Part shown: one piece after another, positions 581 to 53,833 of the stretch
Layout: each line of letters begins with the position of its first letter
Numbering within the stretch: position 1 is the first letter of the stretch
From: Eledone cirrhosa
Lineage: Eukaryota
Length of the DNA stretch: 64,000 nt
Assembly: GCA_964016885.1 (NCBI GenBank)
Contig: OZ024744.1
Span: 101,990,001 to 102,054,000, forward strand
Direction: 5' to 3'
Made by a program: the position numbers and the translations under genes
The notes under the pieces: model-generated
The model's input: only the letters and a program-made list of their open reading frames with translations
Databases searched by the model: none
Told to the model about the DNA's origin: nothing

Positions 581-779
581 AAGCAATGAGTTATTTAATT
601 TGTTGGTTATTCAACAAATTTAGTTTAGACAGATTCGAAGCACTCTACAATATTTCTTTTGGAGTATAATATCAATAATATTAATAAATGGAAACTATCT
701 TTATAAAACCATATTTATTTTATATTATAATAAAATAAATATGGTTTTATAAAGATAGTTTCCATTTATTAATATTATT
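581..779 (-). mobile_element. TA-embedded fold-back element (3' end of a Penelope-like element), relative of 817-1258
   Basis: 49-bp perfect inverted arms 674-722/731-779; 581-722 aligns by eye with 817-965; tail motif at 639-668 (-). Confidence 0.7.
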
Positions 780-955
780 CATATATATATATATATATAT
801 ATATATATATATATATAAGCAGAAGGGATATTCAATTTGTTGGTAATTCAACAAATATAAATGTTTATAACTGATTCAGAGCACTCGACAAGTTTTCTGG
901 AGTATAAAATACAATGATATTAAATAAATGGAAAGTATATTTATAAAACCATATT

Positions 956-1018
956 TATTCTATTATATATATATTTCAGGGGTACCAAAATTTTGGTACG
1001 CTATCATCAGAGAAAATA
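956..1018 (-). ncRNA. Type I hammerhead ribozyme (mirror copy)
   Basis: Reverse complement of 1149-1211 with one stem I change. Confidence 0.7.
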
Positions 1019-1148
1019 CGAAGTGTGTTTTATAAATTTTGACATAACCAAGAAAAATATACCTTAACGGTTCAAGTTATCCAAGGATTACTTGAACCGT
1101 TTAGGTATATTATCTTTGGTCATGTCAAAATTTATAAAACACACTTCG

Positions 1149-1211
1149 TATTTTATCTGATGATAGCGTACCAAAATTTTGGTACCCCTGAAATATATAT
1201 ATAATAGAATA
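1149..1211 (+). ncRNA. Type I hammerhead ribozyme
   Basis: tattttat-CTGATGA-(gtaccaaa/tttggtac stem II)-GAAA-palindromic AT stem III-TA-atagaata; 8-bp stem I. Confidence 0.75.
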
Positions 1212-1296
1212 AATATGGTTTTATAAATATACTTTCCATTTATTTAATATCATTGTATATATATATATATATATATATATATATATATATATATAT

Positions 1297-1338
1297 ATTG
1301 ACCAGAGATGGCTATATATATAGCCATCTCTGGTCAAT
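1297..1338. repeat. Perfect 42-bp palindrome centred on TA repeats
   Basis: attgaccagagatggc-tatatatata-gccatctctggtcaat. Confidence 0.85.
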
Positions 1339-2041
1339 TGCTGACTCTTTACAAAGTCTGACCCATATTAGATTAGATAGAGTTTACTAATAATCACATT
1401 TCGTCGGAGGCGTAGCAAGCAGATGCCACAGAAACATTTTTAGACCAAACTGATTATTAGCAACAAACAGCCGGCTCGCTAACCAACTAACATTACAGAC
1501 ACAAACACAACGATATATGCTAACATCACTTTTTAAAAATCATTTCTTTCTTTCATTACATTACAACCCGTTCCATGCTGCTTCCACTAAACCTAACTAG
1601 ATCCAAGTAACTGACACACACACACACGTATATATATATATATATATATATATATATATATATATATATATATATATATATATATATGTGTGTGTATATA
1701 TATATGTATTATATATATATTATATATCTATATTTTATATATTATATATATATATTTTATATATATATATATATATATTTATGTATCATATATATATATA
1801 TATATATCACACGCAACTGTGCCATCTTCTATCGAACACTCACTTCCTCAATATCAATGTTTCGACAAATCCTCTGTCCGAATCTCATGCTTTGAACCAG
1901 CTCTTTCCTTTCGTATGTTTTCTTTTTCTCTAGTCATCATATATATATGCGTATACGTTTATATATATATGAATATATATATATGGATATATATAGATAT
2001 GGATATATATATATATATATATATATATATATATATATATA

Positions 2042-2231
2042 GGAACCAGTAAGACCCCGACGGCTGAGCTCAAGCCGTTTCGACGGCTAATTCTTCAGAA
2101 TTAGCCGTCGAAACGGCTTGAGCTCAGCCGTCGGGGTCTTACTGGTTCTTATTACCCACTCTACTACCCCAAGTATTGAGTACTTTCGTGCGTTATGGTC
2201 CACCTGGTTCCTTACCACATTTCCTTCGTTA
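2042..2231 (+). mobile_element. Fold-back element carrying 3' halves of a hammerhead plus tail
   Basis: Arms ~2043-2093/2096-2147; GAAACGGC-ttgagctca-GCCGTC (stem III and GUC site); tail motif 2158-2184; related fragment ~32898-32947. Confidence 0.7.
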
Positions 2232-2334
2232 TATACATATATATATATATATATATATATATATATATATATATATAACTGCCAATACTTGAATTGAATA
2301 ATCAAGAACGTAGCAGTGTGTCATATATCAAATC

Positions 2335-2406
2335 ATATATTTTGTCTGATGAGGACGTACTGAAAAAACAACACAGTACCTTTGAAATATATGTAATAAA
2401 GTATAT
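2335..2406 (+). ncRNA. Type I hammerhead ribozyme in TA-flanked element 2279-2450
   Basis: atatattttgt-CTGATGA-gtactg/cagtac-GAAA-tatatg-TA-ataaagtatat; homologue at 52896-52964. Confidence 0.75.
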
Positions 2407-3181
2407 ATTCTGATTATGAGAATATTTTTCATTTGTTAATATTTTGAATAATATATATATATATATGTATATATATATTTATATATATATATATATATAT
2501 ATATATATGTGTGTGTGTGTATGTATGTATATATATATATGGATATATATATATACGGATATATATATATGTACATGTTTATACATACACACACATATAA
2601 TATATATATATATATATATATATATATATATATATATATACATATATTTATTTATATATATATAGATGTGTATATATATATGTATATATATATTTACACA
2701 CATATACATCCATATCAATCAACATGCAAATATATTCTAACTAAACATTAACCATATCGACCAAAGCACACGTTAATCTTAGGAAGTCATGTAAAATAAA
2801 AAGTACGACCGATTACTCCTACTTACTATCCCCTCTACTAATTAATGTACATGTGTGTGTGAAATGATGCATTATGTATGGTGATACTTCTTTGTTCTTC
2901 CTTACTACATGCTTACATGTGTTGAAAAGATTAGTTCGTGATATACTATAATATATATATATATATATATATATATATATATATATATACATATATATAT
3001 ATATATATATATATATATATATATATATATATATATATATATATATATATATATATATATATATATGTATATAAATATGTATATATATATATGCAAGCAG
3101 GGAAAAAGCGGACGTAAAATGAAATGATGATGATATATATATATATATATATATATATATATATATATATATATATATATA

Positions 3182-51155: not shown

Positions 51156-51331
51156 TATATGTATTAATATATAGATGTGTTAATAATATAATATATATGT
51201 TGCATGTAGTGGTGTATATAATATAATAGATATATATATATATATACATGTATATAGAGGTGTATATAATATGATATATATATGCATGTATATATAAAGG
51301 TGTATATAGAATAATATATATGTATATAATA

Positions 51332-51513
51332 TAATTGTTTCTACTTTTGGCACAAGGCCAGCAATTACCCAGCACATTACTGGTACTTTATTTTATCAAC
51401 CCCGTAAGGATGAAAGGCAGTTAACCTCGGCGGAATTTGAACTCAGATCATAAAGGGATGTAACTCTATGCCTCAAAGCATGGTGTCCGACTCTCTACCG
51501 ATACTGCCAATCC
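51332..51513 (-). mobile_element. SINE family A
   Basis: Family A match. Confidence 0.85.
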
Positions 51514-51611
51514 GTATATAATATAATGTATGTAAAAGTGTGTATATAATAGATATTTATGTATGTAGAGATGTATATATAATATAATATATATGCATGT
51601 ACAGGTGTATA

Positions 51612-51890
51612 TCTATATATATAAAATTGATGTTGTCTGTGTGTGTGTCCTCATTTTTGCAAAGTCTATACAAATCCACATTTCTACTCCGATTGACTTC
51701 AAACTTGCATTTATATATTCCTTGCGGTCTAAAGATACTAACTGGTGCTTTTATTTTTCAATTTTCTGTTGTTAAAGGGGTGTTAGGTGCCAGTTATCGA
51801 TCTCCAACGAGCCTTATAATATCTGTCTGTATACCTGGCTGTCTGGCTGTCTGCATAACGACATTCTGACGAACACGTCATTGCTGACGT
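51612..51890 (+). mobile_element. Helitron-like 5' fragment
   Basis: tctatatatataaaa start; ccgatt..ttcaaactt and ccttataatatctgtctgta shared with 41203-41475. Confidence 0.6.
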
Positions 51891-52012
51891 ATTATCTTCA
51901 CTACATTCACACACACACACATAAACATATATACTTATATATACATATATATTTATACACATATATATACACATATATACACATATTCATATATATATAT
52001 ATATATATATAT

Positions 52013-52617
52013 GGTGGCTGCCAACTCGTTTTCGAGTACGGCCACTACTTTATATCCATGTAGGAGAACCCCTACCAATGCGCTGAATCAGTGTGACTTT
52101 TTAGTCCAGCCAGCGACTTGAAAACTCTGGCACAAACACTACACTTGTGACAATTATTGACACATAGTGTACATGGTACCATGTGATGACAAGTGCAGAG
52201 AGATCTCCAGATATAAAGCAATGCCTGTGCCGTGAAGCTTTTATAGTGAGCAAAGGCACTGCACAAAGCCAGTCCCACTCTCTTAACCAAGATGATATTT
52301 ACCAAAAAAGAAGAACAAGTCAACATCATTGGATACCATCAGGGTTGCAGTGTTATATCAGAGATTTCCTTCTCCTAGAATTCTGCCTTGACAAAGGCTA
52401 AGGGGTCATCTCTCCCAGTGATTTTGGATGGCTATTGACTCTTAAGAGCTCCTCTGCCCTTTGGCAGGTTTGTTTTTATGCCAGGTCACCACTTGGTGCT
52501 ACTGGTAACATGTATCCCAGTACAACCTGTCTCATGGTCGGGTCGTTGGCGACTAAACTGGCAACCCCACCAAGGTTTCTTGGTGAGGAGGGTGACTTTG
52601 GACATCCTGCAGGACTA
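52013..52617 (-). mobile_element. Family C copy with inverted 5' segment
   Basis: Body on minus strand 52013-52477; first ~136 nt on plus strand 52482-52617. Confidence 0.8.
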
Positions 52618-52895
52618 AGATATATATATATATACAAGCATATACACATATATAGATATACACATATACACATAAATATACACATAAAAATATATGTATA
52701 TACACACACACACACACACATATATATATGATATATATATATATATATATATATGAATGAAAAAATGGCATGCTGCGTTGTTGCGAGTGTGATACATATG
52801 AATGAAAATAGACCGAGAAACGGGACTGTCCACCATCAGTGGTCTGCTGATTTCATTGATATTTCTTCGCATTAAAGACCAGATACCTCAAAATC

Positions 52896-52964
52896 ATATA
52901 TTTTGTCTGATGAAAACGTACCTAAAAACCATTGTACCTTTGAAATATGTATAATAAAATATAT
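52896..52964 (+). ncRNA. Type I hammerhead ribozyme (family of 2335-2406)
   Basis: atatattttgt-CTGATGA-gtac/gtac-GAAA-tatgta-TA-ataaaatatat. Confidence 0.65.
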
Positions 52965-53037
52965 ATTTTGATTATGAGAATATTTTTCATTTATTAACAT
53001 TTTGAATAATATTATATATATATATATATATATATAT

Positions 53038-53481
53038 GGGGAGTGGGGAGACCCAAGATGACCTGGGATGAGGTGATAAAAGCCGACGTTACCCAATTAC
53101 ACCTCTCAAAGGCGATGACACACGACCGTGACCTCTGGCATCACGCAGTAATACAGAGTACCCGACCTCCCGTGGGTACAATCTGAAGCATATAGACAAT
53201 ATGCCCCCACTCCCCCCACCGCAAGGTGGTCGTGGAGGTGCCACAGCAAAAAAGCACCCAGCCCACACTGTAAAGTGGACGTGTAGGCGCCACAAAAATG
53301 CACCCAGCACTCACTGTAAATGAGGTTGGTGTTAGGTAGGGCATCCAGCTGTAGAAATCAAGCCAAATCAGTTCCTGCATGAGCAAGGCATGGTCAGCCG
53401 ACCAGACACTGCCCACAACAGGACAACCCGTCTAACCCATGCTAGTGTGGAAGAACGGACGTAAAACGGTGATGATGATGA
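53038..53481 (+). mobile_element. RTE 3' fragment
   Basis: ORF end, 3' UTR and GAT tail. Confidence 0.85.
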
Positions 53482-53494
53482 TATATATATATAT

Positions 53495-53833
53495 GTAGGA
53501 GGTGAGTTTTATTGTAGTACAATAAAGCAATCCAGATATCGGATAAGTAGCACTCTACAGTTTGTAGGACTGGAGTATAAATAATATATAAGATCAAAAG
53601 ATGGTTAAAAGAGTTCCATGTATTTTATTATGCGCATTTCAAAAACAAATATCATCACGAGATGACATTTGCGTTTTCGTCAGATAAAATAGGGAAACAT
53701 GATATGAAGGTTAAAAAACACTTGTGAATAGTGAAGTTTTAAAACGCAAATGTCATCTCATGATGATATTTGTTTTTGAAATGCACATAATAAAATACAT
53801 GGAACTCTTTTAACCATCTTTTGATCTTATATT
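53495..53833 (-). mobile_element. Asymmetric hammerhead palindrome element (family of 27894)
   Basis: Minus copy 53495-53743 with tail; shorter plus copy 53741-53833; TA on both sides. Confidence 0.8.
53621..53691 (-). ncRNA. Type I hammerhead ribozyme
   Basis: tattttat-CTGACGA-caaatgtcatc/gatgatatttg-GAAA-TGCGCA-TA-ataaaata. Confidence 0.8.

Follow-up and report, generated by a model that had tools for sequence, protein, structure and literature searches.

Head-to-head Hydra insertions in (TA)n end just before copies of a bulged hairpin that probably positions target-primed reverse transcription

The window, by which we mean the whole stretch of DNA analysed, comprises 64,000 nt of Eledone cirrhosa sequence (GCA_964016885.1, OZ024744.1: 101,990,001-102,054,000, forward strand). 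It contains ten tailed palindromes, that is, inverted pairs in which one arm ends short and the other runs on as a tail, as well as one solo copy. These are given below with the positions of a motif that begins with RCTC; offsets, taken from the window alignment, are counted back from the first base of the motif as [last matching base, start of the TA tract].

579..780, minus strand: family B tailed palindrome (674); short end ~779-780, hairpin-1 motif 639-665(-), offset [3,7-8] from 665(-)
818..1258, minus strand: family B tailed palindrome (909); motif 880-903(-), short end ~1255-1258, offset [5,8] from 903(-); hammerhead-like cores 974-1010(-) and 1157-1193(+)
2042..2229, plus strand: family A tailed palindrome (2147); short end 2042, motif 2158-2184, tail end ~2229, offset [5,8-9] from 2158; centred on hammerhead stem II
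3183..4625, plus strand: family G tailed palindrome (4518) with 654-nt arms; motif variant 4523-4559, offset 4 from 4523, with a 9-nt duplication in the short arm
11393..11613, minus strand: family E tailed palindrome (11461); motif 11437-11460(-), short end ~11613, offset [0,3] from 11460(-)
11626..11945, plus strand: family F tailed palindrome (11870); motif 11876-11900, short end ~11630, offset [5,7] from 11876
13444..13530, minus strand: solo family C copy with a short end, by alignment
27893..30465, plus strand: family C inverted pair (30378); long arm with motif 30383-30410 and tail to ~30465, offset 4 from 30383; short arm 2.4 kb off at 27895(-) with hammerhead-like core 27949-27995; arms split by a non-LTR RT fragment, 28157-29947
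30552..30690, plus strand: family D tailed palindrome (30621); motif 30630-30652, offset 8 from 30630 in this copy against a family mode of 4-7
41698..42128, plus strand: family H tailed palindrome (41985); long-loop motif 41988-42054, offset [2,3] from 41988
53495..53833, minus strand: family C tailed palindrome (53833); motif 53549-53576(-), short end ~53833, offset [4,7] from 53576(-); hammerhead-like core 53637-53683(-)

Sequence comparison, by eye for the published proteins, identifies the tailed palindromes as insertions of Hydra-clade Penelope-like elements (PLEs). Six families adjoin RT and GIY-YIG frames: a Hydra ORF is linked to family B in loci L059 and L139 and to family D in L059 and L174, lies 1.25 kb upstream of family A in L243, L254-L256 and L258, and stands beside an inverted tailed copy of family F in L295; a Hydra EN lies upstream of family G in L081, L084, L086 and L092; and family C has the 800-aa Hydra ORF P0001. 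Families E and H are placed in Hydra more provisionally, by architecture and motif rather than by a directly linked ORF. P0001 is a single ORF with an RT (YRDD) followed, on motif reading, by a C-terminal GIY-YIG-type domain (Y-x-G...F-K-x-R); it carries RRLRWT (RW kept, K not) and SDKT, with DKT in place of DKG, and SDKT is also found in L051. Pfam gave no match for the two ORFs tested, and the best PDB profile match of P0001 is a retron RT (E=0.004). Viral contigs contained no relative of P0001. The Eledone cirrhosa genome has young families with intact 821-residue frames.

The earlier note had cited internal initiation in a Poseidon-type PLE as a fitting precedent; its element class, Penelope-like, is supported, and the clade is Hydra: proteins of families A, B, C and G have the CxCX5C linker, CxxC and CxH and lack CCHH, instead of combining CCHH in the EN with a linker devoid of a Zn-finger as in Penelope/Poseidon. 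Naiad elements have an N-terminal EN and no canonical hammerhead; here the EN is C-terminal, and pattern reading finds candidate hammerhead cores and stems in the pLTRs of families A, B and C, although no hammerhead family is among the 150 of 218 Rfam matches listed. Insertion is into (TA)n, with 216 of 240 tail-less ends running into TA tracts. The family C unit, ~3.67 kb from pLTR to pLTR, exceeds the generally <3 kb of Hydra, a length that is a descriptive and not a diagnostic trait of the clade. A MITE, Helitron or other DNA transposon was rejected, as palindrome centres and 5' extents vary from copy to copy with the ends fixed, and as arms run on into RT ORFs.

That the short arm stops just upstream of RCTC, as the earlier note had observed, holds for all ten tailed palindromes of the window and for the solo copy, with offsets of 0-9 nt; the solo copy at 13444 indeed stops at the short-arm position of its family. 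The tabulation of genomic ends that the same note had called for bears this out: 205 of 240 tail-less ends from eight families lie 0-10 nt upstream of the motif, a tally that includes 59/67 in random stretches and 71/89 in loci retrieved with tail-free queries. This table was passed through an anchor filter (rows from TA-rich references, a SINE, family C antisense self-matches and overlapping loci were dropped) and duplicates were removed via the flanking sequence; the SINE lies upstream of one family E reference. Counting by hand in the first 100 genome matches of each family, we found 55/55 short ends of family A (37,279 matches in total) 0-10 nt upstream of the motif and 45/46 of family D on the rule. 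The 0-10 nt spread itself is partly an artefact, TA microhomology blurring the offsets. Nor does the rule extend from the window's ten to every tailed palindrome: a motif-blind scan of 1,244,000 bases, a few of its rows redundant, yielded 79 tailed inverted pairs, of which 41 have the motif, the other 38, without the strict motif, being degenerate copies and other PLE families. The motif nevertheless falls within -1..10 nt of the junction in 39/79 pairs, against a mean of 0.67 and a maximum of 4 in 1000 tail shuffles. Any ruler must be loose, since family E short ends span three TA patches (0-3 nt in 8/19, 3-8 nt in 9/19). Families with a protein identity of only ~35-50%, other organisms and a second, independent site (see below) all support a positional link between motif and end, although the conserved spacing is not independent evidence, given the common ancestry of the families. 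The rule is specific to the clade: in a Neptune-like family the short end is just as fixed, with no RCTC motif.

The motif, RCUC-Y...R-UH-GAGY-RCU, is a covarying bulged hairpin of 25 nt. Among 74 instances collected with a pattern that demands no pairing, 39 have C-G and 18 have T-A directly above the bulge, 63 have U-H in the bulge, and 29 have an upper stem of at least 3 bp (null mean 3.4, maximum 11). Of four tails folded by minimum free energy, two gave the hairpin and two its upper stem alone. The non-coding flanks of 78 metagenome Hydra loci contain 50 structured matches, whereas 10 shuffles gave 0-1; the motif occurs upstream of the ORF in 21/36 on the sense strand and in 0/36 on the antisense strand, and by eye 13 clear junctions among the 40 rows listed lie 0-8 nt before a motif copy. 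Inspection by eye of the published consensus sequences (PMC8557442 supplement) revealed the motif in Hydra-2_Amil, Hydra-1_Ajap, Hydra-2_Ajap and Hydra-1_Crog, with two copies in Hydra-1_Ajap, whose sequence begins 2 nt before the motif; in the ends shown there, Hydra-1_Amil has a weak motif only and no complete motif was seen in Hydra-1_Obim. An Rfam search of window positions 1-56000 returned no family matching the motif among the 150 of 218 matches listed, these being microsatellite- or palindrome-driven miRNA and weak tRNA-like matches.

A second copy of the motif, overlooked in the earlier note, is associated with the long end. Read-through copies from families A, B and C place it 3-9 nt beyond the long (tail) end, and loci L169 and L163 likewise have two copies each. 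Long ends are 60-141 nt from motif 1, a distance that varies by family, so it is motif 2 that they track. Each fixed end lies 0-9 nt, mostly 3-8 nt, before one of two motif copies. Hairpin 2, which is ~40 nt before the start codon, is never within a tailed end. Among 64 head-to-head pairs, 54 join a short to a long end, 3 are long-long, 4 short-short and 3 unclassified; in the first 100 family A matches the pairs are 31 mixed, 1 long-long and 0 short-short. Where the two arms of a pair differ in 5' reach, the further-reaching one has the long end in 18 cases and the short end in 12, against 57 ties, a pattern that fits two independent cDNAs. Simple tail-first fold-back as the sole route was rejected on account of these 12 pairs.

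TA microhomology, on which the earlier note did not remark, is present at every junction. TA lies within -9..-3 of the motif in 57 of 71 motif instances, and 177 of the 216 TA-terminated short ends are compatible with a 5-8 nt offset. In family F, 16 of 17 such ends use the 2-nt TA at -7 and not the 4-nt TATA at -12, so that here position outweighs microhomology length. In three tail-side/tail-side pairs site 1 is damaged in both arms: the TA patch is lost in L269 and in one family D pair, and hairpin 1 is deleted in the third, from the family D matches. These pairs are anecdotal, since a search of the genome for family A with a mutated TA patch (234 matches) contained no head-to-head double-mutant pair among the first 100. 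Most of the TA-patch mutants are changed in a single arm.

In these 5'-truncated, head-to-head Hydra copies in (TA)n, we consider it likely that the hairpin copies next to both ends position target-primed reverse transcription. The hairpin on the RNA would bind the RT-endonuclease, with copying starting on the UA patch just upstream. Once the endonuclease had nicked (TA)n on both strands, two RTs, perhaps forming a dimer, would start at different places: one before hairpin 1, yielding the short end, and the other before hairpin 2, yielding the long end, with hairpin 1 and the spacer copied as the tail. The resulting cDNAs would then stall and be joined head to head, in many cases at hammerhead stem II. 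Since no tailed end contains hairpin 2, this scheme requires a template of tandem read-through RNA or of RNA circularised by the ribozyme, a circular RNA being an idea found in PMC4209133. More tentatively, the duplicated, clade-wide hairpin may be a two-site landing pad for a dimeric telomerase-like RT, with one hairpin per DNA strand and one RNA, possibly a ribozyme-made circle, programming both ends. That the motif causes the end, through the start of reverse transcription or through a cut, we infer from sequence, which reads the same for an RNA-level start and a DNA-level cut.

The cut would be made by the GIY-YIG endonuclease reading the motif as DNA (cruciform, single-stranded or duplex) and cleaving new cDNA at a TA 3-8 nt upstream, the end being produced during resolution of an intermediate. 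Every junction is indeed at TA, the target sequence, Craig et al. ascribe the tail to 'EN-mediated resolution' (PMC8557442), and recognition by the D. virilis Penelope endonuclease is reported to depend on the tail (cited in Frangieh et al., PMC11167929). We still regard a DNA cut as unlikely: the asymmetric U-H bulge, the G-U pairs and the strict sense-strand occurrence suit an RNA element, long ends would require cDNA extending past hairpin 2, the short end is on the further-5' arm in 12 of 30 asymmetric pairs, unlike the product of tail-first fold-back and a cut, and a PLE in vitro starts internally at both tail boundaries (PMC11167929).

It is rather improbable that TA microhomology alone picks the ends, with the hairpins serving promoter, translation or packaging and the spacing inherited. 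The frequency of TA just before the motif, the several patches used by family E, the position of hairpin 2 ahead of the start codon and the fixed ends of motif-less families would all fit; however, the AU-rich repeats contain many further TA patches that go unused, family F skips the longer patch, the spacing is equal at two sites and in distant hosts, and the pair that has lost hairpin 1 with its TA intact passes the short site in both arms (n=1). Structured RNA can direct nucleases, and trimming or cleavage of the RNA just before each hairpin, with the RT starting at true RNA 3' ends, would be a simple source of two fixed ends. We think this very improbable: cleavage would discard the 3' hairpin, which also could not halt a 3' exonuclease at a point upstream of itself; the hammerhead site is not at the ends but ~40-65 nt upstream; and on longer RNAs the PAc protein initiates internally (PMC11167929).

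How PLE tails and inverted ends form is an acknowledged open question, with just one element reconstituted. The tail is an already known PLE feature and a long-standing puzzle that positioning by a bulged hairpin would explain; a covarying 25-nt motif found twice, at a near-fixed distance from both ends and in hosts of several phyla, makes this testable with a few mutants in an assay that already exists. The motif also offers a boundary rule for annotating a very abundant class of repeats, as the number of family A matches alone illustrates. A two-site landing pad, if true, would give the PLE tail its first defined cis-code and make its hairpin a short portable signal for double-strand RNA-templated insertion. 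Our search of the text of the open-access literature found no published description of the hairpins.

Telomerase RNA boundary elements and the hepadnavirus epsilon stem-loop are RNA structures that position an RT on its template. Their likeness to the Hydra hairpins is a functional analogy only; PLE RTs are sister to telomerase RTs (PMC8557442). The Hydra clade of Craig et al. 2021 (PMC8557442), which includes the octopus Hydra-1_Obim, has the same single ORF of RT and C-terminal GIY-YIG-type domain, the same RW(K), DKT, CxCX5C, CxxC and CxH, the same pLTR hammerhead, and the same (TA)n targets, inverted 5'-truncated partner and tail at one end. The tails of the Eledone families are longer (60-150 nt, compared with 30-40 bp stated for PLEs), as is the family C unit (~3.7 kb, Hydra being generally <3 kb), and the main text of that paper mentions neither 'hairpin' nor 'stem-loop', yet four of its six consensus sequences show the motif. 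PAc, a Poseidon element of Anolis carolinensis (Frangieh et al. 2024, PMC11167929), likewise has two sites bounding the tail, cuts and extends both strands of AT-rich targets, is a predicted dimer and uses a template across the pLTR-ORF junction, with no strand difference between its initiation sites. It belongs to another clade, the text consulted describes no repeated cis-motif, and its sites are within the ORF, whereas those of the Eledone families are in the 5' UTR; since it starts inside an AC-rich stem loop, at sites non-homologous to the target, we take it as an analogue and not as the same signal. Penelope inverted pLTRs of Adineta vaga (Arkhipova et al. 2013, PMC3846280) form the same head-to-head palindromes with an optional one-sided tail and were explained by self-priming on an antisense template; in the Eledone pairs, the joining of short to long ends and the arm asymmetry favour two sense-templated cDNAs over antisense self-priming.

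In each cited palindrome of the window (positions 101990001-102054000 of a 3.0-Gb animal genome, putatively that of an octopus, to judge by its repeats and by a Hydra family published from an octopus), one arm runs directly into (TA)n, and the other is followed by a 60-150 nt tail and then (TA)n. Aligning short against long arms and locating the motif, a bulged hairpin starting with RCTC, placed the short-arm end 0-9 nt before the motif, bearing out the earlier note's claim that the short arm stops just upstream of RCTC. As the element's own sequence reads TA or TAT where it meets the flank, the offset of each palindrome is an interval rather than a point, and the extremes quoted in that note (0 nt at 11461; 8-10 nt at 30621 and 2147) partly reflect TA ambiguity along with local divergence. 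The window also carries the following features, the non-LTR frames of which are putatively RTE-like; the frame at 28157 sits within a family C inverted pair, and the SINE-like pair has a tRNA-like match at 13824-13881.

Other features of the window
32895-32947 (+): solo family A short end, absent from the earlier note, stopping at the family's short site
13230-13430 (-): another Hydra-type tail with a variant motif (~13300-13325), abutting the TA tract beside the solo copy at 13444; relatives in three other stretches (L054, L065, L122)
5246-8483, 28157-29947, 49825-51387: non-LTR retrotransposon frames with AP-endonuclease and RT motifs
12860-14169: inverted pair of SINE-like composite repeats with 370-nt arms, enclosing the 13444 copy
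12038-12061, 23121-23144, 2346-2387, 52907-52945 (+): extra hammerhead-like cores outside the listed palindromes
18801-20075: 48-bp tandem array, 26 copies
56054-63997: degenerate AC-rich satellite, 8 kb

When 1,244,000 bases of the window, neighbouring stretches and more widely spread ones were scanned blind to the motif, 79 tailed inverted pairs emerged; 41 contain the motif, and in 39 it lies within -1 to 10 nt of the junction, as compared to a shuffled-tail expectation of 0.67 on average and 4 at most. The eight window families (A-H), which share ancestry and so do not testify independently to the spacing, yielded 442 de-duplicated ends, 202 tailed and 240 tail-less; 205 of the latter fall 0-10 nt before the motif, in agreement with unbiased subsets (59/67 and 71/89), and an offset of 5-8 nt is compatible with 177 of the 216 tail-less ends that are TA-terminated. 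Pattern searches, hand-counted from output in genome order and reaching only ~14 nt upstream, gave 45 tail-side and 55 short ends among the 100 family A matches listed of 37,279, all short ends being 2-9 nt before the motif and 51 at a single site; the 100 family D matches listed of 5,542 comprised 54 tail-side ends, 45 at 0-7 nt and one inside the hairpin. In this check of 3′ ends against the motif, proposed by the earlier note, ends cluster upstream and scatter independent of the motif was not seen.

The long end behaves likewise. In read-through copies of families A, B and C, which continue past the long end, a second motif starts 3-9 nt beyond the stop of the tailed ends; two further families have two motif copies ahead of the ORF, and among 40 metagenome rows listed, 13 clear junctions precede one or other of the two copies by 0-8 nt. 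Because the second motif sits just past the long end, the tail consists of hairpin 1 followed by the spacer that leads to the second site, and one spacing rule holds for both ends of the element. Separately, inverted junctions at the 5′ ends of full-length family C copies in L142 and L146 start a few bases ahead of hairpin 2, and one 5′ end (L148) carries a six-fold tandem repeat in which short-site sequence is joined to the bases immediately preceding hairpin 2, a pattern that repeated polymerase slippage between the two sites might give.

Family C arms continue into an 800-aa frame (protein P0001) with RRLRW, SDKT, YRDD, CxCX5C, CxxC and CxH motifs and no CCHH; none of its 78 scored genome matches contains stops, and many are open frames of 821 residues. 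These features, the lack of CCHH included, are those listed for the Hydra clade of Penelope-like elements (PLEs) in the clade description (PMC8557442). Families A, B, D, F and G adjoin frames ~30-55% identical to P0001, and architecture alone marks families E and H as putative Hydra-type PLEs. A distance of ~40-65 nt separates the motif from the hammerhead cores upstream of it. The motif reads RCUC, an upper stem of 1-6 bp with a variable loop, a U-H bulge, GAGY and then RCU. It occurs 50 times in the non-coding flanks of 78 metagenome Hydra loci (0-1 in shuffles), upstream of the ORF in sense at 21/36 loci and in antisense at 0/36. A pattern without pairing requirement gave 74 distinct instances, some of them chance or mis-anchored rows; 63 have a U-H bulge, and the pair above the bulge is C-G in 39 and T-A in 18. 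Four of the six published Hydra consensus sequences (coral, two from sea cucumber, copepod) show the motif, and the main text of the paper giving them makes no mention of a hairpin (PMC8557442).

Head-to-head pairs collected without tail bias comprise 54 short+long, 3 long+long (two of them tandem read-throughs), 4 short+short and 3 unclassified; family A, among the 100 matches listed of 37,279, has 31 mixed, one long+long and no short+short. As mixed pairs predominate, an insertion's two ends are coordinated. Where the arms differ in reach, the one extending further 5′ has the long end in 18 pairs and the short one in 12 (57 pairs tie). This split speaks against one tail-first cDNA that folds back and favours two cDNAs. 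At 2094-2097 of the window, and in most family A copies, the palindrome is centred on the foot of hammerhead stem II, with 36 of the 40 family A pairs symmetric, a pattern suggesting that both cDNAs stall or anneal at this point.

What, then, sets the ends? In family F, a 2-nt TA at -7 is used in preference to a 4-nt patch at -12, so position counts for more than the length of pairing; that microhomology alone chooses the ends seems improbable. The ends of family E fall on three patches, all between 0 and 8 nt, so the positional window is loose. In three pairs with both arms past the short site (one in L269, two of family D) site 1 is damaged in both arms; this association is anecdotal, since a genome-wide search for family A TA-patch mutants gave no double-mutant head-to-head pair among the 100 matches listed of 234, and flanks were seen for one of the three pairs. 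In vitro, a Poseidon protein cleaves and extends both strands, initiating at the two tail boundaries (PMC11167929). Taken with the pair and patch data, this makes it our best reading, and a reasonably probable one, that each hairpin would position the start of reverse transcription on a nearby UA patch. A motif-guided endonuclease cut would also place ends near the hairpin, and we regard it as unlikely, if the least so of the alternatives; trimming of the RNA strikes us as the most doubtful of all.

A fixed end is also found outside the Hydra clade, in a Neptune-like family with a CX2-5CxxC linker.

L061:5007-7608; L047-L048: abundant Neptune-like PLE with a CX4CxxC linker and an endonuclease containing two Cys and two His

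Its short end is fixed and its tail (~60 nt) lacks the motif, as does the short end; no read-through copy of this family was found. The hairpin signal is therefore clade-specific and not the cause of fixed ends in all PLEs. Nor is the palindrome architecture new, as PLE insertions are already described in the form of an inverted truncated partner with a tail on one side (PMC8557442). Earlier publications likewise cover the clade, the tail and initiation at two sites; the literature searched, within the limits of the library, yielded neither the twin hairpin nor its spacing rule, and with these two a long-standing question about PLEs becomes directly testable.
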